Positions 39,117-57,000 are shown, counted from the stretch's first letter. The stretch is DNA of 64,000 bases from a virus (IMGVR_UViG_3300042997_002652:1-64000); one strand, 5' to 3'. Program-made: numbers and translations. The notes: generated by a model not told the origin, from the letters alone.

Positions 39117-39699
39117 TATATCTCTTTTTAAGCATATCAAAGTGCGGCTTAGATATGCTATTTGTTTCGGCAATGAGATTTTCGTTTAGATACTTAATCT
39201 GCAAGCTATCATGATCATAATTCTTGTAACCGAATTCACATACTACTCTTTTGCCAATCCTGGCGCTATCAACTCTCGTCTTGAGTTTGGGCTTAATTAC
39301 CTCGTACGGAATTTCAATGACATACAGGAATCTCCCTTCATGAAAACCGGCGCAAATAACATCACACCCGTCCTTCTTATCCAGCAATTCATTTGTCATA
39401 TCATTGAAATTGCCACTATTGGCACCGATCTTTTGACCTTCAACGATAAACTTAGGCTTAACCTCTTTTTGCTTGCCTGTTAGAGGACAGTAGCCATCCA
39501 TGCCATGCTTTTCCGTATATGAAGTATAATTTAGCATACGCAGTACCATTGCCTCTCTAAGCGTTGATGAATTATTATCACTTAGCATAGCCAACAACAA
39601 ATTGCGATATCCTGGATCTAAATTTTCAAATACGCTATCATTTCCTAAGGCATATTGGATAGCAAGGTCAATATTTTCGTCTGAAAGTAAATTTTTCAT
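39103..39699 (-). CDS. Putative type II restriction endonuclease (PD-(D/E)xK)
   Basis: HGMDG-x9-EVK pattern; translationally coupled to the methyltransferase. Confidence 0.5.
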   Translation of the reverse strand: MKNLLSDENIDLAIQYALGNDSVFENLDPGYRNLLLAMLSDNNSSTLREAMVLRMLNYTSYTEKHGMDGYCPLTGKQKEVKPKFIVEGQKIGANSGNFNDMTNELLDKKDGCDVICAGFHEGRFLYVIEIPYEVIKPKLKTRVDSARIGKRVVCEFGYKNYDHDSLQIKYLNENLIAETNSISKPHFDMLKKRYNALT

Positions 39700-39700
39700 C

Positions 39701-40144
39701 TTAACTCACCTCTGTCCTTCCATCACCGATATCTTTAGTTTGAATTACTCGCATTTGTTGAGCGCGAGTGTCTGGATCTGCTTGTTGCTGTTCATACATT
39801 TCTAGTACTACGTTTCTGCATACTTGTGTAAACCAACGATCTACGATATCTGCATCAGTATCGTCAGGTTTCATTTTGTACCCAGCTTTAATTAAGTTTA
39901 ACACAAACTTATCGTTCCAGTCAAGATCAAATGAACCATTATTAATATCATTTGGATCAACATCAACTTTCAAAATATTGATATATGGGTCACCTTTTGC
40001 GGTTGCTTGTTCTTTTGCGCTTAGTGTGGGTTCAACTGGTTTAGGTTTTTTAGCTCTAGGCTTTGGTTCTTTAACAGGTTTTTCTACTGGCTGCTCTGGT
40101 TGTGCTTCAGCTTTCTTAAATAGATTTTTCAGTTTATCAAACAT
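39701..40144 (-). CDS. Hypothetical protein
   Basis: Probable start MFDKLK at 40144; GSFDLDWNDKFV...DRWF motif. Confidence 0.7.
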   Translation of the reverse strand: MFDKLKNLFKKAEAQPEQPVEKPVKEPKPRAKKPKPVEPTLSAKEQATAKGDPYINILKVDVDPNDINNGSFDLDWNDKFVLNLIKAGYKMKPDDTDADIVDRWFTQVCRNVVLEMYEQQQADPDTRAQQMRVIQTKDIGDGRTEVS

Positions 40145-41156
40145 TAGTTTTCTCCTTAATGTATGTATCGTATAATGCAAAGCTAGCAAGGTTTTTTGCT
40201 TTGCTTTCGCACAGCATGTCGGCCCACTCATTGTGAGTTATAGCCCAATCATTAACCGCTGTGTTCCAATAGTAATCAGAATGAGCGCGAAGGTGTTGTT
40301 TTTTGTGCCCAGTTTCTAATAGTGTAGTAAGATTGGGTAGTGTGTTTTTACAATGATTAACTAAGTAATCTTCGCGTGAAACACTATAATGAATAACAGG
40401 TCTAACACCGCGCCAAGAATCAATCACTCGCTTGATACGATCATCTGTAGCTTCAATATACTCACCTGTTTTCACCCAATGATGATGAATATCTAGGACT
40501 AGTGCAACATGATCTGCAAGCTCAAGTGAAGCATCCAATCCCCATGTCATTTCGTCATTTTCAATAGTGATCATGTTTCTTGCTTCAGGAGACAAACGAG
40601 GCAAAACGTCAATAATACCTTGAGGACCTTTTCTGCCAGAGATATGCACATTGATCTTAAAGTCTTGAAACTGTTTGCCATAGCCCATCATGCGAGCCAT
40701 ATCAACATGATATTCAAATTCTCTAATAGAGTTTTCTACTATAGAGGGAGTTTCCGAAGCTAGCACTGTAAACTGACCGGGGTGAAATGAAAGTCTAACG
40801 TTATGCTTTCTAGCAGTTTCACCAATGGGCGCAAATAGTTGCTCCATGCGCTTTACTACGTCAGGCAGTTTGTAAAAGTATTGCCAATCTTCGTGAGTGT
40901 AGGCTGTCATCATGTCGCTCGTCAACCTCACAATTCTAAGCTCAAGTGGAAGTTTAGCAACACGCATAACAAGATTATGTGTGTGTTTGATGTTAGTTTC
41001 CATTACTTCCCACATTTTGCGTTCAGCTACATTCTTGCCCACTTTTTTCAAGTAAGTAAGAGTAGTGCCGCCAGTGTTAAGACCTTCAACACTTTCAACA
41101 AGACCTTTCTTGTTGATTGCTACAAATTTACACGCAAATCCAATCTTTTTGATCAT
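40137..41156 (-). CDS. uvsE: UV damage endonuclease (UvsE/UvdE)
   Basis: IGFACK; RLSFHPGQFTVLAS; ITIENDE; LDIHHH; IHYS; AHSD; MLCESKAK. Confidence 0.92.
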   Translation of the reverse strand: MIKKIGFACKFVAINKKGLVESVEGLNTGGTTLTYLKKVGKNVAERKMWEVMETNIKHTHNLVMRVAKLPLELRIVRLTSDMMTAYTHEDWQYFYKLPDVVKRMEQLFAPIGETARKHNVRLSFHPGQFTVLASETPSIVENSIREFEYHVDMARMMGYGKQFQDFKINVHISGRKGPQGIIDVLPRLSPEARNMITIENDEMTWGLDASLELADHVALVLDIHHHWVKTGEYIEATDDRIKRVIDSWRGVRPVIHYSVSREDYLVNHCKNTLPNLTTLLETGHKKQHLRAHSDYYWNTAVNDWAITHNEWADMLCESKAKNLASFALYDTYIKEKTNV

Positions 41157-41188
41157 TGTAGATACCCAGTATAATGATAGACTAGTTA

Positions 41189-41216
41189 AGTATACACGGT
41201 TATTTAGAAATGTCAA
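41189..41216 (-). promoter_or_regulatory. Sigma70-type promoter for uvsE
   Basis: TTGACA-N16-TATACT. Confidence 0.75.
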
Positions 41217-41259: not shown

Positions 41260-42528
41260 TCAATGCTTTAAGAGTAGGGTACTTAGTACGCCCTGAGAGT
41301 TTGCTGTTAGATCGGGTTCACCGGGAGCAATGATAACATTCCATATATTGTTTATAGAATCTTTACCCTTTTTCTCCCATTCATCATAGCTAAGAATAGT
41401 ATTTTTATTTAAACCGTATTTAATTGCTAGTCTGTCTTTAAGAGTATCTAATGTTCCTGGCTGAAGTTGCCATTGTCCACTTGGTCCCTTTTCCAACTTT
41501 CCGTCTTTCTTGAGCAACAAATCTTTGAATAATTCGTCGGGAACAATTCTAGAGTTCTTTGTTTTTTCTAAGTTAGGATCAGTTGCTTTAACTTGTCTTT
41601 CTTGTTGTTTACTAGCACCCTCACTCCAGTTTATCATAAAGTTGTCTGGTTTCTTTCCTAATGCTGCTCCAGCGATTTTAGTGTAAGCATAGAAATTAAC
41701 ATCAGGTATAGATTGAGCCATTTTAAATGCCAAATCCATATACTGCGGACTAAAGAAATCCCCAGCATCGTGCCATCTAATAGTAACACGATATCCGTTT
41801 TTATCTCCTAAACGTTTTTCTTTTTCAATTTCGGTTTTCAATTGATTAAAGAACCCGTCTGGATCATTTAACAAATATGTTAATATTCTACCATCGCTTA
41901 TCCATGCGTTCTTGAACTGAATCTTTCCGCCTTTCATAGCAAAACAATCAACTTTACATGATCCAGCACCCGGACATGTATTTACGATAATCAATTTATT
42001 ATCTGATTCATCAACTGCGATACCAGTTAACGCAGCAAAACCAACGTTAAAGAACTGTTCTAGTTCTCCGCTGGAGTGTTTCATTTTTTCGTTTTCTTTT
42101 AACAGTTCTTTTGGTCTTTGAGACAACACATCAATAACTTTCTTTTCGTCATATCTGTTACCCGCCGCATCGTAATATTCTATTACGCTAGATCGGTGCA
42201 TGTATGGTAATTTATATCTATCTGTCTTTTCTTTACCCGATACATACTTTTCAATACCTTTCTTATCTACTTTAGGATTACCTTGTTTATCTAAGTCAGG
42301 TGTTCCTATGATTCTTTTCATATAATCTTGAAATTCTTGATCACCAAATTCTCTAGAAGGAGCCGAGAGTTTCGTAGCTTCGTCTACAACTTCATCTTCC
42401 GAAATCTCGTCATCACTTAGTTCAGCTTGTACGAATTCTTCTGGTGACATTATCTCTACGCCAGCAGTTGACCCCGGAAGCGACTCTGCCGCTTCATTAA
42501 TAATATCTAAAAGTTTTCTAAAATCCAT
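41260..42528 (-). CDS. Gp88-like protein with three-Cys cluster
   Basis: TCPGAGSCKVDCFA; RWHDAGDF; FYAYTK; leader MDFRKLLDIINE. Confidence 0.65.
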   Translation of the reverse strand: MDFRKLLDIINEAAESLPGSTAGVEIMSPEEFVQAELSDDEISEDEVVDEATKLSAPSREFGDQEFQDYMKRIIGTPDLDKQGNPKVDKKGIEKYVSGKEKTDRYKLPYMHRSSVIEYYDAAGNRYDEKKVIDVLSQRPKELLKENEKMKHSSGELEQFFNVGFAALTGIAVDESDNKLIIVNTCPGAGSCKVDCFAMKGGKIQFKNAWISDGRILTYLLNDPDGFFNQLKTEIEKEKRLGDKNGYRVTIRWHDAGDFFSPQYMDLAFKMAQSIPDVNFYAYTKIAGAALGKKPDNFMINWSEGASKQQERQVKATDPNLEKTKNSRIVPDELFKDLLLKKDGKLEKGPSGQWQLQPGTLDTLKDRLAIKYGLNKNTILSYDEWEKKGKDSINNIWNVIIAPGEPDLTANSQGVLSTLLLKH

Positions 42529-42550: not shown

Positions 42551-43393
42551 CTATTTATCTAAAGTAAGCAGTTGTTCAACAGTATACAACTCTACCATAT
42601 ACGGTGAAACATTTTCTAATACACTTGATGGTAAGTCCCCTTTCCTCCTAGAACCTTCTTTAACTTTAAAGTCACAGTTGTTTACTTGTTTAAATATATC
42701 AACCATTTCTCTTACAGTGTGACCGATCCCGTGCCCTAAGCTTTCTACTTTGTTACTAGGAGTTTCAATAGCTAACTTTAATGCAGTACATATTTCCATA
42801 ACATGTACATAATCTCTAACCGCTGTACCGTCCCATGATTCTCTATAGTCAGTACCAAAGATAGTAAACTCATCAGTGTCTCGTGCTTTCATTAAATTAT
42901 ACATTAAGCCGTCAGGATTAGTTGGCTTGATACCATAATGACTACCGATCACATTATAAAATCTAAAAATAGTATAATCCATTGGCTTGTGTACAGTACA
43001 CATTTCTCTTACACAATCTTCTGCTGCCCGTTTACTAATACCATATGCTGATTCACACCCAACCGCTGCTCCAGTAGATGCAAATATAAAGTTGTTAGTT
43101 GGTATTTTATTCATTACATTTGTTGTACCATTTAGGTTAGTAAAATAGTACAGCATAGGCATTTGTTCACTTTCCCCTACATTAACTAATGCTGCTAAGT
43201 GAATAACAGCGTCATATGGTTCAGTTTGATCTGGGATAGTAAACAGTCTAGTAATGTCTACTTGATAAAACTTTTTGATAGGTACTTGAGGTTCTTTAAC
43301 ATCTAAACCATGTATTTCATATTCGTTTTCTAATAGTTTGCAAAGATGTGAACCAATATACCCTGAGCAACCTGTAATTAAAATCTTTTTCAT
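42551..43393 (-). CDS. galE: NAD-dependent nucleotide-sugar epimerase/dehydratase (GalE-like)
   Basis: ITGCSGYIGSH; HLAA; YGISK; RDYVHV. Confidence 0.85.
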   Translation of the reverse strand: MKKILITGCSGYIGSHLCKLLENEYEIHGLDVKEPQVPIKKFYQVDITRLFTIPDQTEPYDAVIHLAALVNVGESEQMPMLYYFTNLNGTTNVMNKIPTNNFIFASTGAAVGCESAYGISKRAAEDCVREMCTVHKPMDYTIFRFYNVIGSHYGIKPTNPDGLMYNLMKARDTDEFTIFGTDYRESWDGTAVRDYVHVMEICTALKLAIETPSNKVESLGHGIGHTVREMVDIFKQVNNCDFKVKEGSRRKGDLPSSVLENVSPYMVELYTVEQLLTLDK

Positions 43394-44745
43394 TATAATC
43401 CTTCAAATAATGCATTTGGTGTATCATCTGTTGGTACAAAAGTTAAATCTTTTGTTAACCATGTATCTTGATCTGTATATATTACTCTAAACTTGTGTTT
43501 ATTAGATAATACGCTTTCAAAGTCCTCTCTTGCTATTTGTGTTCTGTTGAGGTCTTTTATATAGTCTTTGTAATTTACGGTTTCGTAAGTGTTTATCTTA
43601 GCTGTATTAGTTTTTGCTTGTTTAGCTTTAAAGTCAACTAACAACTGTTCCCAGCCTTCTGCAACTTGATCATCTAACGATCTGACGTAATCCAAAGCTT
43701 CAGGAAGTTGATTAATACCAGCTAACGCCAAGATATATTCATGTGCTTGTGATAAACTTGTTTTATGATAGAATTTGCTATCAAAGTTATCTGACCAATC
43801 TTGAGTATCTAGAACTACGCAAGGCATGTGTCCTAAACATTCTAAAAAGGCAAACGGATAGTTTTCTCTTAAACTAGGCATGAAAAATATTTTAGAACTT
43901 TTAATAAAGTCTACTTTTTCACTACCCACTATACCTGCTTTTATTTGATAGTCTGTTATACCTGCTTCTTTAAAAGCTTTTTCAAACTTTTTAGCACCGT
44001 TGGAATTAGTCATTACTTTGCAGGGTAACTTACACTCTTTCATCACTTTAATATATGCTTCAGGGTTTTTACCTTCTTCCCATCTGCCGATAAACAACAC
44101 ACCCGATTTAGTTCCTGCATAGGGTTCTAGTAATTGTCTTTCGCTCATTGGCATTTTTAACAGCTTACAATTAGTAGAACCATGTTTGGTTAATTCGTTG
44201 ATATTTTTTTGACTTTGTGTTCCTATAATAATATCACTAAACTCCATGTGCTTGTTATAGAAGTTGTGATAACTTGATAGAAAAACATCACTACCTTGTG
44301 TTTCTCTAAAGATCATACTGTGTAAATGAGTATAGAACACGATTGGTATGTAGCTGTTTAGAGTCATTGCATAAGCAGCAGACATTGCTTCCTGTGTGTT
44401 ACATATTAGCATATCATAAATGTTTGTTTCAAACCCGATAATAATAGATTTGCGAAAGTTTACTATCTTTTCAAAGTTAATAGTATCACTAAATGCAAAT
44501 GTATTAGTATGGTCAGTGTATCTAAGGTTGTCTGAAGGATAAACAATGTTTGCACCTAATGACTGCAACAGTTCACTAAACTCGTTAGTAGGTTTTTTAT
44601 CTACGATGATATCAACTTTCCATTGTAGTCTTGCACACATTTCAGTAAAACCTTTAGCAAACTGGCCTATCCCGCCGTGAGGGATAAGATGCTGGTCGCT
44701 TATTAAAAATCCAATTCTTTTGTTATATGTTTTTATGTTCCCCAC
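43393..44745 (-). CDS. GT-B glycosyltransferase (GT4-like)
   Basis: PHGGIGQF; FIGRWEEGKNP; ENYPFAFLE (E-x7-E). Confidence 0.85.
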   Translation of the reverse strand: MGNIKTYNKRIGFLISDQHLIPHGGIGQFAKGFTEMCARLQWKVDIIVDKKPTNEFSELLQSLGANIVYPSDNLRYTDHTNTFAFSDTINFEKIVNFRKSIIIGFETNIYDMLICNTQEAMSAAYAMTLNSYIPIVFYTHLHSMIFRETQGSDVFLSSYHNFYNKHMEFSDIIIGTQSQKNINELTKHGSTNCKLLKMPMSERQLLEPYAGTKSGVLFIGRWEEGKNPEAYIKVMKECKLPCKVMTNSNGAKKFEKAFKEAGITDYQIKAGIVGSEKVDFIKSSKIFFMPSLRENYPFAFLECLGHMPCVVLDTQDWSDNFDSKFYHKTSLSQAHEYILALAGINQLPEALDYVRSLDDQVAEGWEQLLVDFKAKQAKTNTAKINTYETVNYKDYIKDLNRTQIAREDFESVLSNKHKFRVIYTDQDTWLTKDLTFVPTDDTPNALFEGL

Positions 44746-45578
44746 CTATTCCCAAAAAGCGGGATATGAAGTCTATCGCTGTATCTTAATCCATGTTTCA
44801 TAGCTAGTTCAGCTACCCGTTGATTGTTTAACCTATATACGCTTTCTACGCCACCGATTGGCATCAAGTAAACAGGACCTTTGAACCCTTCTTTTCTATA
44901 CAATTCAGTTACTTCTATAGCTTCCATAGCATCTTCATCGGTTGCTATAACAAACTTTAAGTAAGTGTATCCTGCATTTTGATAATCTACAACGATTTCG
45001 GGAATAATAGCATCTTCACGTTTTTCACCTGAACAACTTAATTTAGGACTTACTGAAAATGTGATTTCTCTATCCCAATGCTGAGCCGCCCACTCATTCC
45101 TTAAGTAATGTCTAAACTCTTTAAACAATGGTTGTGTGCCATTAGTTTCAAACGTAATCTCTTTTAATGATTGCATCTTTGGATGATTTAATAAGTCAGG
45201 ATAAGATCGTTGCCACCCTAACAAAGGTTCACCACCAGTAATAACCAAATGTTCGTCACGCCATTCTTTAAATGGCAACAGATTAACTATTGCTTCAGCA
45301 ATCGCATCAGTAGTAAGTTTAGGGGATAAGTGTTTAAAGTTTACATCCCAGCTTGCGTAACTGTCACAACCAGTCGTAACTAATGGCAAGTCATTATAGT
45401 TTTTATAGCTTTTAGGATGAATTAGATTTCTTTCGTTACTGATTTCACCTTTAGGCATACCAAATCCTGAACAAGTGAAGTTGCAACCAAATGTTCGTAA
45501 GAATACACTTGGTACACCAGTATATCTGCCTTCTCCTTGTACTGAATAAAATAGTTCGCTGATCTTTATATTAGACAT
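44733..45578 (-). CDS. queE: 7-carboxy-7-deazaguanine synthase (radical SAM)
   Basis: ELFYSVQGEG; FLRTFGCNFTC...GCDS; ITGGEP; ETNGT; SVSPK; RLHI. Confidence 0.93.
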   Translation of the reverse strand: MSNIKISELFYSVQGEGRYTGVPSVFLRTFGCNFTCSGFGMPKGEISNERNLIHPKSYKNYNDLPLVTTGCDSYASWDVNFKHLSPKLTTDAIAEAIVNLLPFKEWRDEHLVITGGEPLLGWQRSYPDLLNHPKMQSLKEITFETNGTQPLFKEFRHYLRNEWAAQHWDREITFSVSPKLSCSGEKREDAIIPEIVVDYQNAGYTYLKFVIATDEDAMEAIEVTELYRKEGFKGPVYLMPIGGVESVYRLNNQRVAELAMKHGLRYSDRLHIPLFGNRWGT

Positions 45579-45774
45579 TTGTATCTCGTTTAGTTTTCAG
45601 GGTCGGGTTCTCTACCGGTCTGCATGATAACTGACTATCACACAAACCGTATCTAGTAGTTTCTGTTATTATCTCATAACCGTTGTAAATTACAACCTTT
45701 TCGGTAGTTTCTGTTTCTAAAAACTTTTTAAAAGAACCAAGTGTGTCCCATTTTAACTTTTTGGGTACATACAT
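45571..45774 (-). CDS. Hypothetical protein
   Basis: 67 aa from MYVPKK; TAATG overlap with the PRTase stop. Confidence 0.6.
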   Translation of the reverse strand: MYVPKKLKWDTLGSFKKFLETETTEKVVIYNGYEIITETTRYGLCDSQLSCRPVENPTLKTKRDTNV

Positions 45775-46322
45775 TACTTCCACCAGTTTTCCCAAGAAAA
45801 CTCTATCCAAGAATCTTCTTCAGCTTTGTTAATAGACAAAGAAGTATAGGCTATATCTTTAAAGTCGCTGGCTTCATTGTTTATCAATGTAGCAAACTTT
45901 ACATTATGATTCCATACTGTATCCCAGGCATACCTTTCATTTGGCATACATGACGATTCCCAGTCTTTCTTAATCCATTTGATAGTTTCACCCGTATCAT
46001 TGATATCATCTACAATCAAGATATTCTTTCTACGTGATACGTCCCAACGTGACTTTTCAGTTTGTCTTATTTCAGTTGACAAGTAGCCAAAAGCATGTTC
46101 AGGCATCCAAGCATTACACTCTTGTTGCGCATGGTCTCTTAAACTAACTCGCAATGTTTCCATTGGCACATTATAATACTGACTGATTAAAAGTGCAGGA
46201 AGTAAACCACCTCGCGTAATACCCACAACGTAGTCAGGTTTATATCCAGACAAAGTTATTTGTCTGATGATATCCATAGTCATTTTTTGTACATCTGAGT
46301 TTGATAACGTTACTGTGTTCAT
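45774..46322 (-). CDS. Type I purine phosphoribosyltransferase (Gpt/Hpt-like)
   Basis: VVGITRGGLLPA; ILIVDDINDTGET PRPP-binding motif; WIEFSWE. Confidence 0.85.
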   Translation of the reverse strand: MNTVTLSNSDVQKMTMDIIRQITLSGYKPDYVVGITRGGLLPALLISQYYNVPMETLRVSLRDHAQQECNAWMPEHAFGYLSTEIRQTEKSRWDVSRRKNILIVDDINDTGETIKWIKKDWESSCMPNERYAWDTVWNHNVKFATLINNEASDFKDIAYTSLSINKAEEDSWIEFSWENWWK

Positions 46323-46323
46323 A

Positions 46324-46788
46324 TTATCCTTCATAAATTGCTGAGTTAGCATCATGTTCAAATACTTCTACGCTTTTAACAGATACTGTTTTGTTTAATA
46401 ATGTGCCTGCTTTTTGGCTTTCGTCTAAAATTTGCGTCATTTTCTTAAAAGCCATTTCAGCAAATCGTTCACATCCAACTGCTGGAACAATTCGCAAATC
46501 AGCTACATGTGTGGGCAAATTCTTTAACTGTTCAAGTTCGGGATCATCTTCAGCTACTAACAAAGTATGATCAAACATGTGTTCTAGCCACTGTTTAAAT
46601 TCTTTAAGCCCGCCAAAATCCATGACCCAGTTTCTTTCATCCAAGCTTTCACATTCAAAGATGATTTTAACACCTATTGAATAGCCATGAAGTAGCGAAC
46701 AATGACTATGAGTAGAACGCCACTGTCTAAAGCAACAGCTTAGTCCCCTGTCATTACCATATGTTTTTGTACTATAAAACTTACCCAT
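46324..46788 (-). CDS. queD: 6-carboxy-5,6,7,8-tetrahydropterin synthase
   Basis: HSHCSLLHGY; WVMDFGGLK; FDHT; VFEH. Confidence 0.9.
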   Translation of the reverse strand: MGKFYSTKTYGNDRGLSCCFRQWRSTHSHCSLLHGYSIGVKIIFECESLDERNWVMDFGGLKEFKQWLEHMFDHTLLVAEDDPELEQLKNLPTHVADLRIVPAVGCERFAEMAFKKMTQILDESQKAGTLLNKTVSVKSVEVFEHDANSAIYEG

Positions 46789-47245
46789 TCTTTCTCTCCG
46801 ATTCTGTTACTCGTTTACGTAAACTACTAGAGCTAAAACTATGATTTCTTTTATTATAAATGATTTCTATGTCAATTGCAAGACAATATTCTTTACCAGT
46901 GAAATCTTTGTCCATGTACTCTGCTCCCAATATACGAACATCTACTGGAAGTATTTTTAGTAAATCAAGCAAGTCTTGTTCAGTTTGGTATACCACAACT
47001 TCATCTACAAACCTACATGAACTTAATTGTATCTGTCGTTCAACGATACTTTGTACTGGTTTGTTTTTGGTGTCAGGTCTATCTATAGTTGGATCAGTTT
47101 GTAATCCAGCGATCAGGTAGTCGCAGTGATTTTTAGCTTCAGCTAACATTGCTATGTGTCCGGCATGAAGAAGGTCAAAAGCAGAAAATACTATGCCTAT
47201 CTTTTTTCCTTCTTCTTTTAATTGTCTAATTACATTAAAGATCAT
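46781..47245 (-). CDS. Cytidylyltransferase (TagD-like)
   Basis: AFDLLHAGH; RPDTKNKPVQ; FSSSSLR. Confidence 0.85.
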   Translation of the reverse strand: MIFNVIRQLKEEGKKIGIVFSAFDLLHAGHIAMLAEAKNHCDYLIAGLQTDPTIDRPDTKNKPVQSIVERQIQLSSCRFVDEVVVYQTEQDLLDLLKILPVDVRILGAEYMDKDFTGKEYCLAIDIEIIYNKRNHSFSSSSLRKRVTESERKNG

Positions 47246-47928
47246 TTCTGAGGTTTTCCCATTCGTGCAATGCTTAGAAACTCTGCTCTTGCTGCTGGAT
47301 CAGTTTTGAAACCTCCACCTAATTTACAAGTTACTGTGCTTGACCCAGTGTCTTCAACACCGCGGCTCTTAACACAATAATGCTGTGCATCTATCATAAC
47401 AGCAACATGTTCAGTTTCTAAAATATAGGAAAGTGCATGGAATACTTGTTCAGTCAGTCTTTCTTGGATCTGAGGACGCTTACTGAAATACTCAACAATC
47501 CGATTGATCTTTGAAAGACCCAGAACCTTTTCCTGGGGTACGTATGCTACAGTAGCAAGACCATCAATGATTACAAAGTGATGTTCACAATTAGATTGTA
47601 CGTTTACGTTGCGTTCAACGACCATTTCGTCATAGCCCATTTTGTTTGCAACAGTAGTACATTTTGGGAATGCATCATAGTCTAGACCCCAAAAGATTTC
47701 ATTAACATACATCTTAGCAACACGCTTGGGCGTTTCTATAAGACTGTCATCAGATAAATTTAACCCGAGGGCTTGCATAATATCGGTAAACTTAGCTTCA
47801 ATGATTTCAATTTTGTCTGTGCGACTTAGATTGTTTTCAACTTGAGGAGTTTCAACTCCCATTTTGACTAGATATTTGTGTATCTTTTGACCCAACTCTG
47901 GATCACATTTTACTTTATTAAATGACAT
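47242..47928 (-). CDS. folE: GTP cyclohydrolase I
   Basis: ETPKRVAKMY; CEHHF; RPQIQERLT; HYCVKSRG. Confidence 0.97.
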   Translation of the reverse strand: MSFNKVKCDPELGQKIHKYLVKMGVETPQVENNLSRTDKIEIIEAKFTDIMQALGLNLSDDSLIETPKRVAKMYVNEIFWGLDYDAFPKCTTVANKMGYDEMVVERNVNVQSNCEHHFVIIDGLATVAYVPQEKVLGLSKINRIVEYFSKRPQIQERLTEQVFHALSYILETEHVAVMIDAQHYCVKSRGVEDTGSSTVTCKLGGGFKTDPAARAEFLSIARMGKPQK

Positions 47929-47934
47929 TTATAT

Positions 47935-48003
47935 TCTCCTTTTGAAAGCATCTAACGTTAATGCTCAACGACCTTTCGGTATTTGCTACCTTTGTGTAGC
48001 AAA
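47935..48003 (-). promoter_or_regulatory. Three-hairpin structured leader upstream of folE
   Basis: UUUGCUAC/GUAGCAAA, ACC-GAAA-GGU and AGCAU/AUGCU stems ending next to the AAGGAG RBS. Confidence 0.45.
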
Positions 48004-48008
48004 GATAT

Positions 48009-49112
48009 TTATCTCTTGTCAAGAAACACCGAATTAAATTGTTTGTTCACTCTAACAAATGTTGTACACTTTGACAAGTCTTTTAGGCTCGTTGCACCAA
48101 CATAAGTACAAGTACTGCGAACCCCACCTAAGATATCTTGTACTGTTTTAGCTACTGGACCTTTGTATGGAACCTTAACAGTCCTACCTTCTGAACTACG
48201 ATATTCTGCTACCCCGCCATGATGTTTAGTCATAGCAGTATCGGAACTCATACCATAAAACTGAACAAACTGCTTCTTTTCTTCAAGCTTTCCCAAACGA
48301 TTACCGGTTTCAGGGTCAAAGATTATTTGATTGGTTTCGTATACTTCTTCAATTATTTCTCCGCCACCTTCTGTGTGACCAGCAAGCATACCGCCTAGCA
48401 TTACAAAATCTGCGCCACCGCCGAATGCTTTTGCTATATCACCAGGACAAGTACAACCACCATCAGCAATGATATGACCGCCCAAACCGTGTGCTGCGTC
48501 CGCGCATTCAATAATGGCTGATAGTTGAGGATACCCAACACCTGTTTGAATACGAGTAGTGCAAACACTACCAGGACCAATACCCACTTTAACAATGTCT
48601 GCTCCACGTAAAATTAACTCCTGTGTCATATCTGCGGTAACTACATTACCTGCAATAATAGTTTTAGTTGGACATAATTTTCTAACTTTAGCAACAAACT
48701 CACCAAAGTGTTCTGAATATCCGTTAGCTATATCAATACAAATAAACTGTATCATGTCAGGATACTTATAAAGAATACTTTGTAACTTTGTAAAGTCACG
48801 ATCACTAGTACCAGTACTGATAGCAGTATTGTAAGAAAAGAATTTTGAAAAATTATCTTCCAAATCTTCTAAAGAATAACTTTTAACTAAGCAAGTAATC
48901 ATATTATATCCAGCAAGCGCAACTGCTATGTCAAAAGTACCAACACCATCCATGTTTGCAGCTAGGATAGGCACACCAGTCCAATTTGCGTTACTGTGCT
49001 TGAACTGATAAGTTCTTTCCAAACTTACTTCTTTTCTGCTAGACAGTGTTGATCTTTTTGGACGGATTAGAACATCACTGAAATCTAGTTTTACTTCATT
49101 TTCAATACGCAT
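48009..49112 (-). CDS. guaC: GMP reductase
   Basis: [16 protein letters not shown]; DIANGYSE; GPGSVCTTR; ADGGC; FYGMSS; RSSEG. Confidence 0.95.
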
Positions 49113-49113
49113 A

Positions 49114-50313
49114 TTAGTACTTGTTTTCCTTTGTGTGTTTTCTATAATCTGTAGACATACGTAACCATTGCTCGCCTTTGCCTTCTATGATGTCACAAAT
49201 TCTATCAACAGTTTTGTCTGTCCAATCACTGATTTTGCCCATGTTTTTATGAGGTTTATCCAACAAAGATTCTAGTTTGCTGATCATATCTTCTATAGAC
49301 CAGGGCACATACATTCTTTCATGATCGTTAGCAAATACTTCAGGGAAAGAACGATACGCAGGGAATAAGACATTACATCCTAGTGCGTCAGCTTCACTTA
49401 CAGTATTACTAGTCCAATCTTGTAGTGCAGTATTAACTAAAACTCTAGAGTCTGTGAGTAAACGATAGTACTCATTTTTAGACAAGTTTTCATAAATCGT
49501 AAGCAACTTTTCTTCTTGCATAGCTCTAGCCATATCAACAAATTCTTGTTTGTTACTACGCAACGTTGAGCCTGTAAATATAGAAAATTCTATTTCACCA
49601 AACATTTCTTTGGGATATTTAGCATACCATTCTTTGATTAACTGAAGATAAAAGTCTGGATTCTTTTCTTGATCCCAACGTGAAGAAAAGCATACGCGCA
49701 TTTTGCGTTTATTGAATAAGATTAGGTTATGATCTACACGTTCTCTAACTTCTTGCTTATTAAATGCTAAACCAGATACGTTGTAAATGTTTGCAGTCCA
49801 TCCTGCTACTTTCATGTGTGCTACCATTTCTTCGTTTGATGCTAATACAGCACCTTTAGAAATAGAAACAATAGTGTTGACCATTTGTTCGTATTCGCTC
49901 ATCCACTTTTGCATACCCCAAACATGAACAAAGTCATCTGGATCAATAGTTTGTGCTAAACAGCGAACAAAGATACGAGGTCTTAGATTTTCTGGCACTT
50001 GAGTGATAATATATCCCAAGCTTTCAAAACCGGGCTGAAACATATCTTCAAAGTAAATTACGTCTTCATTTGTTACTTCACCCTGCTGCATCATACGAAC
50101 CAAGTTCATCATTTGACTCATAGCAAAGTAACTACGTCCGTGTGCATCTAAAACTTGACCTACTACAATTTGGTTAGAGTCATCAAGAGTTTCGCCCGGA
50201 ACATAAACTACTTTCATCCTTCTATGATCAAATACTCGCTTGTTCCATTCAGTTAATTGAAGTGTGTACCTTGCTTCGTAACTTTCAAGCCCCATGTAAA
50301 ACAGTTTTTGCAT
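49114..50313 (-). CDS. GT-B glycosyltransferase (GT4-like) within the deazaguanine cluster
   Basis: [11 protein letters not shown]; [11 protein letters not shown] (D-x7-E); YRSFPE. Confidence 0.8.
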
Positions 50314-50331
50314 TCTATCCTCTTTATTAGT

Positions 50332-50361
50332 AAAGAATGGGCTTGAAAGCCCATTCTTTTT
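50332..50361. terminator. Bidirectional-type intrinsic terminator
   Basis: aaagaatgggc-ttgaaa-gcccattcttt. Confidence 0.8.
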
Positions 50362-50366
50362 AGATT

Positions 50367-50594
50367 TTATCGTGATCCCGAAAGTCTTTCAAGTTGCTGA
50401 GCCCACTGATCTTTTACTTCCTTGCCAGTTAGTAGCTTGCCGTATTGACGCCAGACATAGCTACGATTGCTGTACAAGTCAGCTTCATCAAACCGGTACC
50501 CATACTCTCTACAGAAATTTCTATATTTATCCAAATCATCAAAAACTTTCTGAGTACGCGGATTAGGTTTAATATTGTTAGTTGAACGTGACAT
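50367..50594 (-). CDS. Hypothetical protein
   Basis: 75-aa ORF. Confidence 0.7.
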   Translation of the reverse strand: MSRSTNNIKPNPRTQKVFDDLDKYRNFCREYGYRFDEADLYSNRSYVWRQYGKLLTGKEVKDQWAQQLERLSGSR

Positions 50595-50664
50595 AAATAA
50601 AATTACTCCAATAAGTAATTAAGGTTAAAGTTAAGTTGTTTGAGAAAATTTTATACACTTATTC

Positions 50665-51108
50665 TCATCGTGTTAAGCAATTATATTCTATTTCACAACC
50701 GTTTTCATTATCTTCGGCAACAGAGATTACTATTTTTCTCCCAGAATAACGAGTTGCAATTACTTCGTACAAATCATCAGCAATCATTTCGCAACTTTTA
50801 TGATTAAGTTCCAAAACACTATTCTTATACTGATTTTCTAACCAGCGTTTGAATTGGATAAATTCAATATCTCGGTCATTATGGAAAACTTGAATAGCTA
50901 CCTTAAAGTAGAAAATATGTCTATGAGGCCAACCTAAAAAGCTAACATCATACTCATCTTTAGTTTTTAGATTAGGATCAGTGCTAGCATCAGGATAACA
51001 ATGAATACCTTCCTTTTGAAAAGTTACCCAAATCATACGAGTAGCCTTATTTTTGATTTGATTTCTTTGTTCTATCATAGCTATTTCTCTTTGATTAACT
51101 GCACTCAT
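50665..51108 (-). CDS. dpdL: QueD-like T-fold paralog, probable CDG decarboxylase (DpdL-like)
   Basis: LGWPHRHIF fits LxxxHRHxF; RDIEFIQFKRWL; SCEMIA; VAEDNENG. Confidence 0.65.
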   Translation of the reverse strand: MSAVNQREIAMIEQRNQIKNKATRMIWVTFQKEGIHCYPDASTDPNLKTKDEYDVSFLGWPHRHIFYFKVAIQVFHNDRDIEFIQFKRWLENQYKNSVLELNHKSCEMIADDLYEVIATRYSGRKIVISVAEDNENGCEIEYNCLTR

Positions 51109-51314
51109 CTATCATCACCGTAATCCAATCGTTCATGAGTTTCTTCCCATTCTTCTTTTATAAGTCTAGACAGTTCCAAAGAGTACTCATTTTTTTGCTT
51201 TTGCATTTCAACAAGTTTTTGTTTATTGTAATTCTCGTCTTTCATAGCTGCTTGTATCAGAGTAGTAAGACGGTTAATATTTTCTCGCACAAACTGAATT
51301 CTACTTTTATTCAT
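51105..51314 (-). CDS. Hypothetical coiled-coil protein
   Basis: 69-aa ORF. Confidence 0.65.
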   Translation of the reverse strand: MNKSRIQFVRENINRLTTLIQAAMKDENYNKQKLVEMQKQKNEYSLELSRLIKEEWEETHERLDYGDDR

Positions 51315-51327
51315 ATCTTTTCTCTTG

Positions 51328-52884
51328 TTAACTAATACTAAATAAATCAGGATTACCCCACTGCGGTAATACTTTCTTTTCTAACTTATCTATTACCATT
51401 TTATCATGAAGGTCATCACCCTCAAAATTATCCGTAAGTGTAGTCATGTTGTTTACTGCTTTCTTACCAGAAAAGCCCTGACTTCCTGACTGCATTTGCA
51501 TCCAAAACTTGTTATACTGTTCAATAGTATCTAAACTTTCTTGTCTAGTTTTTTTACTAAAGATTTCATCTACGATGTCATTAAAGTGTTTGGGTTCAAA
51601 CTTGTTCATAATCATTTTTGGCATAATGCCCTGCTCGTACCTACGATTAGCTTCTTGAACAGCATAGATGTGTTGATACACATTATGGGCTTGAACTAGT
51701 GTATAACTCAAAGTATCCCAACTTGTTTTAGTTTCTTTACCATGCTGTCCCAAAAAGCCATGACCCCTATAACACAAGTCCTTAATAAGCATTTTATCAG
51801 TTACAGGAGAATCAGTAAATATTTTATGGATGCCGTCAGCTAAAACTGCGTCACTAAACTTTCTATTATCTGTATCATAGTTTTTATTTTCAGCAGTTTT
51901 TTCCATTGAATAGGACCATTTCTTATCATGTTCAATAGAATTATTAAAGTAAACCAAACCTTTTGCTGCTGCGAAAAACGGGCTAGCACAGTCAAATGTA
52001 ATTTGCAAGTTTGGATTGTGATACTTTCTAACTGCACGTTGAATGTCAGTAAACAGAACCGCATACTCTAAGATACTAGTACCCAAACAGTGAATAAGAT
52101 CGTGTTTACCTGTTTCTAGTAATCCATCGTAAATCATGTTTACTATACGTTTGAGCATCAAGTGAATGTCAATTTTATTCTGACCACCAAACGCCCAACC
52201 GTTAAAGTGATTAGTTGGATATACTTTTGGATCACAGTACTTTTTCATTTCAGCATACCATTCATCACTTTGAGTATGAGTTAATCCTTGAAGTACGTTT
52301 AATAACTTACATTCGCCTGTTCTGTTATTGATAAAATACTCATTGTTGATATGAGTAGCTGCAACAGCTTGTTCTATTGTAGAAATACCGTGCTTGTCAA
52401 GTAAGTGTTTGTTTCTAAGAGTTTGAGTAGGAACGTCAAGACACATACCATAGTCCATATAAGTATCCATCCATTTTAGTACTAGTTGACGCTGCTTCAT
52501 AGCTTTAGGACAGTTAGGATCTTTCCAATCAGCTGGCCATTGCCCCTTCATAATCTGAAATCCACCTGAGTCGCCTAACATGAAAGTACCCTTTTCACGC
52601 TTTCTGATAATTGACTCACTTGGATCATCTTTAGTAATGTCTAGATTAGCGTGACCTGCAGAATACAAGCCCCATTTGTACTTGTACAAACCCTGAGTAG
52701 AGTTCAAGAAGTTAAGTGGTTCTACGTCACCATTAAACCCTTGAGGAATTCTAGCAGCATCAAAGTACTGCTCACCTTCTCGTTGTTTGCCTAATCCTGC
52801 GATAAAGAATGAAGACACTGCCGGTAAGAACAGTGCCCATTCTGGATTGTGTGCGTTAGTAAGATTATGCTGGATCTGATCCAT
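51328..52884 (-). CDS. dpdA: TGT-superfamily guanine transglycosylase (DpdA-like, possibly DpdA3 type)
   Basis: DSGGFQ, LDVP, VLQG, AFGG, HCLG, FDCAS and HN motifs in TGT order; no obvious C-terminal CxCxxC zinc site. Confidence 0.8.
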   Translation of the reverse strand: MDQIQHNLTNAHNPEWALFLPAVSSFFIAGLGKQREGEQYFDAARIPQGFNGDVEPLNFLNSTQGLYKYKWGLYSAGHANLDITKDDPSESIIRKREKGTFMLGDSGGFQIMKGQWPADWKDPNCPKAMKQRQLVLKWMDTYMDYGMCLDVPTQTLRNKHLLDKHGISTIEQAVAATHINNEYFINNRTGECKLLNVLQGLTHTQSDEWYAEMKKYCDPKVYPTNHFNGWAFGGQNKIDIHLMLKRIVNMIYDGLLETGKHDLIHCLGTSILEYAVLFTDIQRAVRKYHNPNLQITFDCASPFFAAAKGLVYFNNSIEHDKKWSYSMEKTAENKNYDTDNRKFSDAVLADGIHKIFTDSPVTDKMLIKDLCYRGHGFLGQHGKETKTSWDTLSYTLVQAHNVYQHIYAVQEANRRYEQGIMPKMIMNKFEPKHFNDIVDEIFSKKTRQESLDTIEQYNKFWMQMQSGSQGFSGKKAVNNMTTLTDNFEGDDLHDKMVIDKLEKKVLPQWGNPDLFSIS

Positions 52885-54032: not shown

Positions 54033-56735
54033 TCAACCAAAAGAAAACAAACTATCAAATGTAGTATTTGTGTCTGTGTTACTTTTCAAGTCCCAGTTTA
54101 GTACACCTAATAGGTTTTCAATCTTTTTATCTACTAGTGTAGTTTCCATTAATGAGTCATCAAACGGTAATTGTTTGAACCAATCTGGAAGTCTAAGCTC
54201 ATCTGTAGGATAAGCAATGGAAGTGAATCCTAACGGATTGGTTTTAAGCTTACACACAACAACTTTCATACCATCTAAAATAGTCATAGAATAATTGTCG
54301 CTATGTGCCTTTTTAAGAAAGTTCCAATTGATAGCTGCACGAACATGCCCCGGCATAGTAGCCTTACCTTTTTTACTTCTAGCTTCTAGTTCGCCGTAAA
54401 AAGTAAGCTTGTTTACTGACTTAGGAGAACCCTTAGTCCAACTAGGCTGTTCGGATAGTTCTCGCTTAAAATCTTTGATACGTTCTATAATATCTTCTTT
54501 GGACTTATTGCTTAGAACCATAGTAAGAACGTCTAGTAAAAACTTTTGAATATATTTAGGCGTATCTGATCTTTTTAGTTCAAGACCCATAGCTTTAATA
54601 TCACCCGTTTTACCATTTACGTCTTTACGCTTGCCTTCTTTGTCATAGATATTTACCGCATAACGCTTTTTCTTGATAAACAAGCCCACGTCACCTATGA
54701 TTTCTCTGCCACCTTTAATGATAGCACCGTTCTTTCTTGGACAATGACATGCACGTTCCATGAACCCGGGAAAGCTATCGTTAACTTGATCAGCAATATT
54801 ATCATATAATTGGACAACTAGTTCTTTGTTCCATTCCATCTTACCTGCGTTAACTTCTTGCTCAATAATAGGCCAAGCTGAAAAATAACCTGAGTCGGTA
54901 TCAGAGTATATCATAGATTCGCCTTCATGATTGTAAGCACCTGTTATAATCTCATTGATCTGAGAATTCATGTGCTTAACAATTTGTCTACCAGTTAAAG
55001 TAACTGACTGACCCAATCGTTTGTCATAGAACCTACAGTGTTCATTTAAGAGTGCACCATAAGCAGAGTTAAGCAAAATCTTTCTTACCAACTGTCGCTT
55101 GTCATAATACTCTTTATCTGTTTCAGTAGTAGCTTCTTTTAGTTTTTTCTGCAAGTCTTTACGTTCAGCATACCAACGAGTAAGTAGACCGGGAATAACA
55201 CCTTCTTGATCACTTCTAAATATAGTACCATTAGCTGATAACATATACGGACTGTGTGAATCAAAAATCATTTTCCATATTTCAGCAGCAGACATTTCTT
55301 GTGATCTACCATCTTCAAAGTCAACAATAAGCATTGTGCCGCGTTCTTGATTCATTACTGAAGTATATTCTAGTGAACCAAACAATCCTTCCCAAAGCAA
55401 TGAACTCATGTCAAGTTCATCATCTTCGTCATAGTTTCGCTTTTCTTTAGCTAGTTCCATTGCTCTATCGTGTAAGAACTTTTCAGTATGTGTTTGTCTA
55501 ATTTGCCCTACAATTGTTTCTGGGGCCATGTTCAAAGCACGAATTGTTGAAGGATACAGTGAGTTAATATCTATAGCTCCCACCCAGTAATGCAATCCTT
55601 TCTTTGGTTGGGCAACATAAGCACCAGCAGCAGCCATTTCGCCTGAATGACCTCTTTGCTTATCTGGCACGATAAGACCTCTAGCATGTGCTTCATTATA
55701 GATAGCCATTTCAATCATAGCTACTGAACCCATTACTGTTGGTAACAATACTGTATTTTCGTGTGCTAGTTGATTAGCCAACTCTAAGAATTTTAGCTTG
55801 TTGTGAATCTTTACTACAAGCATAGTGTCTTGGCGGTTATATCTAATGAATTCTTTGAAGTCACGATTGTATAGTTGATCTAGTGTGCCTTCATATGGAG
55901 TTTTTGTTTCACCAACTTCCATTTCCCCGATAGCATCTAACGAGTAACTGTGTCTGGATTCATAGTTGTACTTTTTATACAACTGAAGATAGTCCATATG
56001 AATTCTACCTACTAAGTCATATGTTTGTTCTTCTTTACCAAATCGTTCGTAAGTTCTTGGTTTAGGTAATTGCCCCATTAAACAGAACTTTCTAGTATCA
56101 TCTTTACTCATGATCTTAGTTACTCTGTTTACTATATATGGAATATCAAATCCTTCTGAGTTCCATCCTGTTAACACATCAGCATCTTCAATTATTTGAA
56201 AGAAAGTTTCAAACATTTCTATTTCACTACGAAACAAAAAAGTGTTTGGAAATTCTGCTACTAGCTCTTGTGCTGTTTCGTCTGTTATGTGTTTAGGTGG
56301 AATAGCCAAACATATAAGTTGATCTAACCAATCCAAGTACAATGCAATTGCTGTCACTGGACTAAAAGGATCACTAGTAGGCGCGTATCCGCGTTCTGGG
56401 GAAAAATCAACCTCAATGTCAAAAAACGCTGTGTGAAGTTTTGGAGCTTCTACACCTAAATAGTTGTCAGATAAACATCTAAAAACAGTGTTAACATCGC
56501 TTTCAAATAACTTCTTACCCGAGTGTATACGCTTTTCTTTTTCAAATTCGCTTTTCTTTCTAGTAGAAAACCTACTTAAAGAGTCACGATAGATAGAACG
56601 ATACTTGCCTTTAGAGTCGGGATAATAAAATACATAGTTAGCAGGGAACTCCTGATAGCTTCTAGTGCCATCAGAAGTTCTTTCTATCACATGTATGCGA
56701 TCATTTTTTGCATCATTGATTGCATCAACATACAT
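54033..56735 (-). CDS. Family B DNA polymerase (T4 gp43-like)
   Basis: Exo FDIEVD, GWNSEGFDIPY, YNRQD; pol DINSLYPS, KILLNSAYG, YSDTDS, KKRYA; probable start MYVDA at 56735. Confidence 0.97.
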   Translation of the reverse strand: MYVDAINDAKNDRIHVIERTSDGTRSYQEFPANYVFYYPDSKGKYRSIYRDSLSRFSTRKKSEFEKEKRIHSGKKLFESDVNTVFRCLSDNYLGVEAPKLHTAFFDIEVDFSPERGYAPTSDPFSPVTAIALYLDWLDQLICLAIPPKHITDETAQELVAEFPNTFLFRSEIEMFETFFQIIEDADVLTGWNSEGFDIPYIVNRVTKIMSKDDTRKFCLMGQLPKPRTYERFGKEEQTYDLVGRIHMDYLQLYKKYNYESRHSYSLDAIGEMEVGETKTPYEGTLDQLYNRDFKEFIRYNRQDTMLVVKIHNKLKFLELANQLAHENTVLLPTVMGSVAMIEMAIYNEAHARGLIVPDKQRGHSGEMAAAGAYVAQPKKGLHYWVGAIDINSLYPSTIRALNMAPETIVGQIRQTHTEKFLHDRAMELAKEKRNYDEDDELDMSSLLWEGLFGSLEYTSVMNQERGTMLIVDFEDGRSQEMSAAEIWKMIFDSHSPYMLSANGTIFRSDQEGVIPGLLTRWYAERKDLQKKLKEATTETDKEYYDKRQLVRKILLNSAYGALLNEHCRFYDKRLGQSVTLTGRQIVKHMNSQINEIITGAYNHEGESMIYSDTDSGYFSAWPIIEQEVNAGKMEWNKELVVQLYDNIADQVNDSFPGFMERACHCPRKNGAIIKGGREIIGDVGLFIKKKRYAVNIYDKEGKRKDVNGKTGDIKAMGLELKRSDTPKYIQKFLLDVLTMVLSNKSKEDIIERIKDFKRELSEQPSWTKGSPKSVNKLTFYGELEARSKKGKATMPGHVRAAINWNFLKKAHSDNYSMTILDGMKVVVCKLKTNPLGFTSIAYPTDELRLPDWFKQLPFDDSLMETTLVDKKIENLLGVLNWDLKSNTDTNTTFDSLFSFG

Positions 56736-56736
56736 A

Positions 56737-57000
56737 TTACTGGACCCTGCCAACAGTCTCCAGAATCGTGTTTAAATCTTCATGATCTTGATTAGTTTGT
56801 GTAAGTGATGACTTGTATGCAGTCTTTACTGCCCGTTTTAGTACGGATGGCTTGATATCTAGCTCTTCTGCAATAGCTTTTATCGTATCCGATAATCCGC
56901 CGTTAAGCGTTTCTATCTCATTTAATACTGAAAGACCCTCATTTATAATCTGGGTCAATTTAGTTTTTTCGTCTTGATTAAATACTCTACCGTTTGACAT
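56737..57000 (-). CDS. GapR/T4 DsbA-like dsDNA-binding protein
   Basis: LSDTIKAIAEELDIKPSVLKRAVKTAYK. Confidence 0.55.
   Translation of the reverse strand: MSNGRVFNQDEKTKLTQIINEGLSVLNEIETLNGGLSDTIKAIAEELDIKPSVLKRAVKTAYKSSLTQTNQDHEDLNTILETVGRVQ

Follow-up and report, generated by a model that had tools for sequence, protein, structure and literature searches.

The first 64 kb of a 266,967-bp IMG/VR virus record (IMGVR_UViG_3300042997_002652:1-64000; hereafter the window) carry, at positions 42,551 to 52,884, a gene cluster in which the enzymes of 7-deazaguanine synthesis are interleaved with genes for sugar transfer. GTP cyclohydrolase I (FolE), QueD, QueE and the QueD paralogue DpdL lie among two GT4-like glycosyltransferases (GTs; here GT399 and GT450), a GalE-like epimerase of the short-chain dehydrogenase/reductase (SDR) type, a TagD-like nucleotidyltransferase, a type I purine phosphoribosyltransferase (PRTase), the GMP reductase GuaC and a 518-aa protein, p518, with the fold of tRNA-guanine transglycosylase (TGT) (Table 1). 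The core pathway is already known; what is new is the pairing of a long transglycosylase with a GT4 enzyme, which was previously unrecognised. The record also contains a T4-type Gp23 capsid gene, and it therefore represents a large, uncultured T4-like phage.

A prediction made earlier from this DNA (the original prediction) had described the interleaved deazaguanine and sugar genes, their position directly downstream of the DNA polymerase PolB and a putative clamp, and overlapping starts and stops at 43393, 44733–44745 and 46781–47245. All the genes that it named are present on the minus strand, and their position and junctions are as described, although its list had omitted the PRTase, the GMP reductase and three small open reading frames (ORFs; s69, s75 and s79). 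Pfam, NCBIfam and PHROG scans of the window placed every gene from 56753 down to 42551 on the minus strand. Neighbouring genes overlap by 4 nt (FolE and nucleotidyltransferase; s69 and dpdL), 8 nt (nucleotidyltransferase and QueD; s79 and queE), 13 nt (QueE and GT450) and 1 nt (GT450 and epimerase), and a 1-nt gap separates GT399 from GuaC. The start of GT450 was called at a GTG codon, the next in-frame ATG lying 35 codons further downstream. PolB shares 46% identity with the split PolB of Pseudomonas jumbo phage PA5oct. The structures nearest to the clamp (Atlas) belong to PCNA and gp45 clusters, with template modelling (TM) scores of 0.74–0.77, and its homologue in phage Phosso bears a sliding-clamp annotation.

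A scan for promoters and terminators gave the same counts as shuffled sequence, so operon structure is not readable from it. A hairpin with a perfect 12-bp stem (5 G-C pairs) lies at 50332–50359, in the 53-nt gap between s75 and GT399, and a second lies at 47982–48003, between GuaC and FolE; both may be intercistronic RNA structures.

Table 1. Genes of the cluster and its replication-gene context (window positions), and occupants of the GT slot in three related loci (positions in each locus).
Feature	Position	Strand	Basis or remark
Family B DNA polymerase PolB	54033..56753	minus	PF00136 and PF03104; context gene, cluster begins just downstream
Sliding clamp, gp45/PCNA fold, 244 aa	53217..53951	minus	Structure neighbours; context gene
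78-aa ORF	between clamp and p518	minus
p518, long TGT-fold transglycosylase, DpdA-like candidate without zinc motif	51328..52884	minus	DSGGFQ; fold
Small ORF s69, 69 aa	51105..51314	minus	Present in part of clade
DpdL (p147), QueD paralogue, proposed 7-carboxy-7-deazaguanine decarboxylase	50665..51108	minus	L-x3-HRH-x-F motif
Small basic ORF s75, 75 aa, without family	50367..50594	minus	Constant between dpdL and GT in clade
GT399, GT-B, GT4-like retaining glycosyltransferase	49114..50313	minus	PF00534; AlphaFold2 model; Foldseek
GMP reductase GuaC, variable accessory gene	48009..49112	minus	NF003470
GTP cyclohydrolase I FolE	47242..47928	minus	PF01227 206 bits; NF006824 316 bits
Nucleotidyltransferase, TagD / RfaE domain II type (CTP_transf_like)	46781..47245	minus	PF01467; HAGH; type that activates sugar- or polyol-phosphates
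QueD, 6-carboxytetrahydropterin synthase (PTPS family)	46324..46788	minus	PF01242 69 bits; TIGR03367 match
Type I purine phosphoribosyltransferase, 6-oxopurine PRT-like	45774..46361	minus	PF00156
Small ORF s79, 79 aa	45571..45810	minus
QueE, radical-SAM 7-carboxy-7-deazaguanine synthase	44733..45578	minus	PF04055; five QueE NCBIfam models below cut-offs
GT450, second GT4-like glycosyltransferase	43393..44745	minus	PF00534 27.8–28.8 bits
GalE-like NAD-dependent epimerase (SDR), 280 aa	42551..43393	minus	PF01370 115 bits
Divergent GT-slot occupant	L007:9324-10100
Divergent GT-slot occupant	L061:11296-12402
Divergent GT-slot occupant	L064:13254-14360

The core pathway is of the phiST kind

FolE, QueD and QueE together convert GTP to 7-carboxy-7-deazaguanine (CDG), an established function of these families; QueE here is 47% identical to that of the cyanophage BUCT-ZZ01. 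Residues 57–65 of DpdL read LGWPHRHIF and fit L-x3-HRH-x-F in place of C-x3-HGH. This pattern is the signature of DpdL, a QueD paralogue proposed to decarboxylate CDG (Cui, Hutinet et al., Nucleic Acids Research 2023, PMC10516641). Comparative searches were made in a set of 50,697 GenBank phage records, in which tblastn with DpdL matched 29 records, the DpdL locus of Cellulophaga phage phiST among them; identity was 32% to the phiST protein (E 8e-7) and 50% to the DpdL of phage ACP17.

The cluster lacks queC, and its core is a QueC-less, DpdL-type 7-deazaguanine system of a known kind, as in phiST. The two have in common the route to CDG, the DpdL motif, a TGT-superfamily transglycosylase, a position among replication genes and a PRTase homologue, which in phiST lies elsewhere in the genome. 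By analogy, DpdL and the TGT-fold enzyme would complete a phiST-like pathway here. The systems differ in the transglycosylase, which is a short DpdA3 in phiST and a 518-aa protein of what looks like a separate subfamily here, and in the two GT4 glycosyltransferases, the epimerase and the nucleotidyltransferase, which phiST does not have.

Outside the window, at genome position 239415–240110, an HNH endonuclease gene and the Gp23 capsid gene stand beside a PP-loop ORF that is a divergent member of the QueC family (39 bits to PF06508). Its sole relative among the GenBank phages is in Ralstonia phage RsoM2USA, a phage without DpdL, and we therefore treat it as a caveat and not as a member of the system.

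p518 is a candidate DNA transglycosylase, apparently of a distinct long subfamily

p518 carries the motifs DSGGFQ, LDVPT, GWAFGG and FDC and has 824 homologues at E ≤ 0.001 in a library of 1.8 billion proteins. Residues D105, S106, G108, D150, P152, G229, H265, G268 and D298 are invariant in 48 aligned homologues, down to 26% identity; from the motifs and their spacing, we take D105, D150, G229 and D298 to correspond to D102, D156, G230 and D280 of Zymomonas mobilis TGT. Searches of PDB sequences by phmmer and with profiles gave nothing significant for p518, DpdL or GT399, and the identity of p518 for that reason rests on comparison of folds: its AlphaFold2 model (pLDDT 90) returned tRNA-guanine transglycosylase (Z. 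mobilis TGT) for all of the top 50 PDB matches by Foldseek, with probability 1.00 and TM scores by target of about 0.55. The Pfam TGT model found no match in the genome, and p518 has no Pfam family. Nor does p518 have the zinc site CxCxxC...H: it contains seven cysteines (125, 148, 192, 217, 266, 299 and 371) and no CxCxxC.

The original prediction had equated this transglycosylase with dpdA3, which the comparison with known DpdA3 proteins did not bear out. Aligned by hhalign, the p518 family matched phiST DpdA3 at 63% probability over 81 columns only, and a hidden Markov model (HMM) built from five short DpdA3 proteins did not match p518 at E 0.1. Judged by its sequence, p518 seems to belong to a long subfamily of its own, with members in PA5oct, ACP17, X1, BUCT-ZZ01, BCSR5 and Phosso. 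We regard it as a candidate DNA-guanine transglycosylase, the phiST precedent suggesting that it exchanges guanine in DNA for a 7-deazaguanine. Support for such an exchange is indirect and comes from the resistance of PA5oct DNA to restriction.

GT399 occurs together with DpdL and the long transglycosylase

GT399 scored 26.1–28.1 bits against PF00534, around the cut-off of 26.4. Its AlphaFold2 model has a GT-B fold (predicted TM score, 0.81), closest by Foldseek (E 1e-9) to the GT4/GT5 retaining transferases glycogen synthase, PimA, BshA and MshA, and D299-x7-E307, R212 and K217 are invariant in 39 sequences of the family. The tRNA-queuosine mannosyltransferase QTMAN, a GT4-type GT-B enzyme, was considered as an identity for GT399 and rejected: it appeared only among language-model neighbours (0.97), its PF12038 domain (QTMAN_N) was found in none of the 39 members at E 1, and it was not among the Foldseek top 30.

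In the GenBank phage records, tblastn with GT399 found eight records and with the more central homologue from Xanthomonas phage X1 it found 18, all of them DpdL phages, which fall into six lineages; an HMM of the clade (the related metagenomic loci described below) confirmed the matches adjoining DpdL. The GT399 gene was without exception part of a deazaguanine cluster. In all six lineages the gene lies no more than about 3 kb from DpdL, as its immediate neighbour in four, and the gene orders differ: DpdA, GT, DpdL in the PA5oct-like Wroclawvirus lineage; DpdA, GT, DpdL, QueE in ACP17; GT, DpdA, DpdL, QueE in X1/BUDD; FolE, GT450, DpdA, DpdL, GT399 in BUCT-ZZ01; clamp, glycosylase, DpdL, GT in Phosso; and, in BCSR5, a GT within the deazaguanine cluster. 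PA5oct has PolB, the clamp, a p518 homologue (34% identity), a GT399-family enzyme, DpdL (59%), a short SDR, the PRTase and QueE in syntenic order with the present cluster, but no GT450, TagD-like gene or GuaC in the 25-kb stretch examined. Its DNA withstands restriction at sites that contain G (PMC12191111), which speaks for the core pathway.

The long, p518-type transglycosylase was found in each of these six lineages (HMM E 6e-152 in PA5oct and 2e-7 in ACP17; tblastn E 2e-34 in Phosso; hhalign probability 92–95% in BUCT-ZZ01, X1 and BCSR5). Five further DpdL lineages, phiST, D479, Ahp1, Bakedbeans and RHph_I1_18, carry instead the short DpdA3 of the phiST/Flavobacterium type (HMM E 1e-54 or better), and in these no GT399-family gene was found either within 9 kb of DpdL (20 kb in phiST) or by whole-genome tblastn. 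With the present clade included, the partition is therefore seven lineages with the long enzyme and a GT against five with the short enzyme and no GT, with no mixed lineage; an exact test gives such a split a chance of 1 in 792 on the assumption of independent lineages, an assumption that holds only in part. Similarity ranks disagree between the genes: in BUCT-ZZ01 the GT is the closest of all (58%) and the DpdL the most distant (40%), and in Phosso it is the other way round. The GT has therefore been exchanged, or has diverged faster, yet stays with DpdL. That a transglycosylase of twice the length is paired with a GT fits an inserted or processed base differing from that of phiST.

In Rhizobium phage RHph_I1_18 (L091, 9408–10232), a macro-domain (Appr-1-p processing) protein follows DpdL, in the GT position; the DpdA3 of this phage has a C-terminal extension, and its gene is annotated as DUF3310 domain-containing.

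The arrangement is conserved in related metagenomic contigs

Megablast of the 10-kb block against GenBank phages gave no match. In metagenomes, the p518 and GT399 families number thousands of proteins of 70–85% identity, on contigs of up to 370 kb. We compared 80 related IMG/VR loci, counting those long enough to judge. Their order is p518, DpdL, s75, GT399, (GuaC), FolE, nucleotidyltransferase, QueD, (PRTase), QueE, GT450 and epimerase, with small insertions between genes in places, and DpdL was present in 60 of 60, the GT399 slot in 37 of 37, FolE in 27 of 27 and the nucleotidyltransferase in 26 of 27. The arrangement is not due to chance, because the same order recurs in all of the related IMG/VR contigs that reach far enough. 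Three further, shorter loci have a much more divergent GT399-family member in the slot after DpdL and s75 (E 2e-11 to 4e-20 against the clade HMM; 24% identity or detected by HMM only; Table 1), which suggests that the sugar step is diversifying within one phage clade.

Apart from GT399 and GT450, the 267-kb record contains no Glycos_transf_1 gene. GT450 has the motifs ENYPFAFLE (E-x7-E) and GRWEEGKNP, the epimerase keeps GCSGYIG (GxxGxxG), FASTG and YGISK (YxxxK), and the nucleotidyltransferase keeps HAGH (HxGH); none of these four sugar enzymes, GT399 included, has lost its catalytic motifs, and they look functional. Scores fell below the equivalog cut-offs both for the epimerase, an SDR epimerase or dehydratase (161 bits against 262 for TIGR01179), and for the nucleotidyltransferase (82 against 181 for TIGR02199; 59 against 165 for TIGR01518). 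A role for TagD in the S-B43 carboxymethylcytosine pathway was considered and set aside, as the S-B43 paper makes no mention of it.

Phage homologues of GT450, which in the clade has two variants (about 44% and 72% identity), were found in DpdL phages only, namely BUCT-ZZ01, where the gene adjoins FolE, and X1/BUDD. The full-length GalE-like gene is kept only within the clade, PA5oct having a 172-aa SDR fragment at that position. We regard GT399 as firmly part of the system, GT450 and the SDR as probably so and the nucleotidyltransferase as possibly so, ranking the last three lower because support thins outside the clade; the nucleotidyltransferase and GuaC, both common in unrelated phages, are the weaker members.

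GuaC exceeds both equivalog cut-offs (560 bits against 397 for NF003470; 536 against 492 for TIGR01305), is 60% identical to Salmonella GuaC and has homologues in many unrelated phages; it is absent from about half of the clade. The PRTase has the motif VDDINDTGET (DDxxDTGxT of 6-oxopurine PRTases), and its PDB matches are to archaeal purine PRTases and yeast hypoxanthine-guanine PRTase (HGPRT), the best being the purine PRTases 1vdm and 4trb; it scored 35 bits against a cut-off of 138 with the NCBIfam XPRT model. By tblastn it occurs in DpdL phages only, with both transglycosylase types (phiST group, BUCT-ZZ01 and PA5oct). Each of the 17 clade loci with full coverage has either both the PRTase and GuaC or neither of them, which may reflect a single event. 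A reading in which the PRTase and the nucleotidyltransferase serve NAD salvage (Nampt/NMNAT-like) was rejected: the PRTase is a type I purine enzyme, and for the transferase the scores of NMN adenylyltransferase models fall far below those of RfaE-II/TagD.

Proposed pathway

We propose that the cluster is a replication-linked operon by which guanine in the phage DNA is replaced with 7-deazaguanine, the base being decorated with sugar before or after the exchange; in our judgement the case for this is evenly balanced. FolE, QueD and QueE would make CDG from GTP, after which, following phiST, DpdL would remove the carboxyl group and p518 would swap DNA guanine for the deazapurine behind the replication fork. 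Comparative genomics points to three sugar steps: GT399 may glycosylate the deazapurine with a nucleotide sugar as donor, acting before insertion on the free base (the way in which HuiG works in huimycin synthesis) or after insertion on DNA; GT450 may add a second unit in this clade; and the GalE-like epimerase and the TagD/RfaE-like nucleotidyltransferase may supply activated donors. For the PRTase and GuaC, the simplest reading, and the most likely one, is salvage of the guanine cut out (guanine to GMP to IMP), because base exchange frees one guanine per site. The modification would serve to leave restriction enzymes and other nucleases unable to read the DNA. The sugar genes probably belong to this modification because the GT399 family is confined to DpdL phages with the long transglycosylase.

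Several points weigh against this proposal. phiST, the sole DpdL phage analysed chemically, has plain 7-deazaguanine (dDG), for which no GT is needed. dDG has no hydroxyl group, and the sugar would have to be accepted by the exocyclic N2, by the electron-rich C7 or C8 or, if DpdL acts otherwise here, by a retained carboxyl. The X1 relative of GT450 lies about 40 kb from the cluster, amid NAD-salvage genes, and TagD-like nucleotidyltransferases occur in 133 phage records, most of them without deazaguanine genes. GT399, with an isoelectric point of 5.6, gives no sign of DNA binding, and net charge is uninformative here, p518 (6.6) not being basic either. The divergent QueC-like gene elsewhere in the genome could alter the base made, and the lineages compared are mostly T4-like and may not be fully independent. 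DpdL activity was not reconstituted in earlier work, in which DpdL with DpdA gave no dDG in Escherichia coli (PMC10516641). The original prediction, in which the sugar genes may decorate the deazaguanine or a second base, is supported in part: GT399 at least is linked with the pathway, and the phage relatives of GT450 are confined to DpdL phages. It is weakened by the widespread TagD-like gene, the clade-only GalE-like gene and the distant X1 relative of GT450.

Alternative readings

The best-placed alternative, which we nevertheless consider unlikely, is that the DNA carries plain dDG as in phiST and that the GTs, epimerase and nucleotidyltransferase act elsewhere, on a small molecule, on the host envelope or on a protein of the virion or of replication, and lie in the operon only through a shared timing of expression. 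The phiST and X1 observations speak for it, as do TagD-like genes being widespread in cyanophages and vibriophages without deazaguanine genes, and the structures nearest to GT399 include BshA, MshA and PimA, which have small-molecule or lipid acceptors. However, none of the 50,668 records without a DpdL match has a member of the GT399 family, which moreover stays in the cluster in six lineages despite rearrangements and tracks the transglycosylase subtype perfectly, seven to five; an envelope or virion function predicts neither the confinement nor the tracking.

A second alternative moves the chemistry to the nucleotide level. In tubercidin synthesis, TubE is a CDG-PRTase and TubD a GMP reductase homologue (PMC6112128). 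By analogy, the PRTase would join CDG to phosphoribosyl pyrophosphate, DpdL would decarboxylate the nucleotide and GuaC would act in the manner of TubD, with PolB incorporating the product or the GTs acting on the nucleotide and the TGT-like protein left with a subsidiary or proofreading role. The combination found here, FolE, QueD and QueE with a GMP reductase and a type I PRTase but no QueC, is indeed that of tubercidin and toyocamycin, the PRTase homologues are confined to DpdL phages, the PRTase and GuaC vary together, and such a route might explain the failure of DpdL and DpdA in E. coli. We nonetheless find it improbable. Both genes, the PRTase and GuaC, are missing from about half of the clade, where all else is kept, and their co-variation may be one gain or loss; GuaC shares 60% identity with the enterobacterial enzyme and is frequent in unrelated phages; the DDxxDTGxT motif of the PRTase, with the N7-contacting Asp of HG(X)PRTases, suits guanine; no UbiD decarboxylase, adenylosuccinate synthetase (PurA) or PurZ was found in the 267-kb record; and a conserved TGT-fold enzyme, which the tubercidin and toyocamycin pathways do not have, adjoins the clamp.

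That the GTs act on some other nucleic-acid target, a hydroxymethylpyrimidine or a queuosine-like tRNA base, with the deazaguanine genes mere neighbours or serving tRNA, seems to us very improbable: the known DNA glycosylations are all on pyrimidines (T-even phages and base J), and the language-model neighbours of GT399 include tRNA-queuosine mannosyltransferase clusters (0.97), but the thymidylate-synthase family is represented by a single gene, whose score is that of a canonical ThyA (366 bits), QTMAN_N was not matched and QTMAN not ranked by Foldseek, and the restriction block of PA5oct, whose DNA resists enzymes with G in their sites (PMC12191111), is G-specific.

Extension to other phages and precedents

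Applied to this clade of environmental jumbo phages together with PA5oct, ACP17, X1/BUDD, BCSR5, BUCT-ZZ01 and Phosso, our proposal becomes that DNA guanine is replaced by a glycosylated 7-deazapurine, by means of a long, zinc-free DpdA subfamily and a dedicated GT4, and that here a second GT, an epimerase and a nucleotidyltransferase build it out to a disaccharide or a sugar/polyol-phosphate; this broader form we put forward a little more tentatively than the narrower one. Every glycosylated DNA base known to us is a pyrimidine derivative, and in full-text literature searches we found no report of glycosylated deazaguanine in DNA, nor of a sugar-bearing purine in any DNA. If correct, the proposal would give the first sugar-bearing purine in DNA and a new class of DNA hypermodification, occurring in phages that are very abundant in metagenomes. 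It would concern PA5oct, a model jumbo phage and candidate for therapy in which END nucleases are known to target the modified G, and would bear on evasion of restriction and CRISPR, on sequencing artefacts and on enzyme tools, namely a GT with which to label purines and a new DNA transglycosylase.

Precedents exist for parts of the scheme. The glucosylation of 5-hydroxymethylcytosine in T-even phages, by alpha- and beta-glucosyltransferases, likewise uses a phage GT-B enzyme, a nucleotide-sugar donor and a non-canonical base against restriction, with the GT varying among relatives, but its acceptor is a pyrimidine with a hydroxyl group, the base is made at the nucleotide level, and the GTs are of families GT63 and GT72 and not GT4-like. 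GTs that act on 7-deazaguanine derivatives are found among the queuosine enzymes of animal tRNA (QTMAN/GTDC1 and QTGAL) and in huimycin and dapiramicin synthesis; none of these acts on DNA, the targets being RNA or a secondary metabolite. The acceptor for QTMAN is the cyclopentene diol. HuiG glycosylates a free 7-deazapurine base, as the dapiramicin GT does, and in huimycin and dapiramicin the sugar is linked at N2.

Neighbouring genes

The 267-kb record is labelled a provirus in IMG/VR; the label looks doubtful because of the T4-type capsid, polymerase and clamp genes and of phage-like coding almost throughout on one strand. Elsewhere in the window are a ClpX-like AAA+ ATPase with a zinc finger (24046–25257), an ATP-dependent DNA ligase (27377–28708) and a ferritin-like protein (58498–58941); no tRNA genes were found in the 64 kb. 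On the minus strand at 38109–39699, the gene for an N6_N4_Mtase DNA methyltransferase (354 aa) overlaps a 198-aa ORF without family. Directly downstream of the epimerase lie genes for a GP88-family (PF17338) protein (41260–42528) and a UvdE UV-damage endonuclease (40137–41216), both of which also adjoin the cluster in some of the related contigs (L016, L021 and L039).

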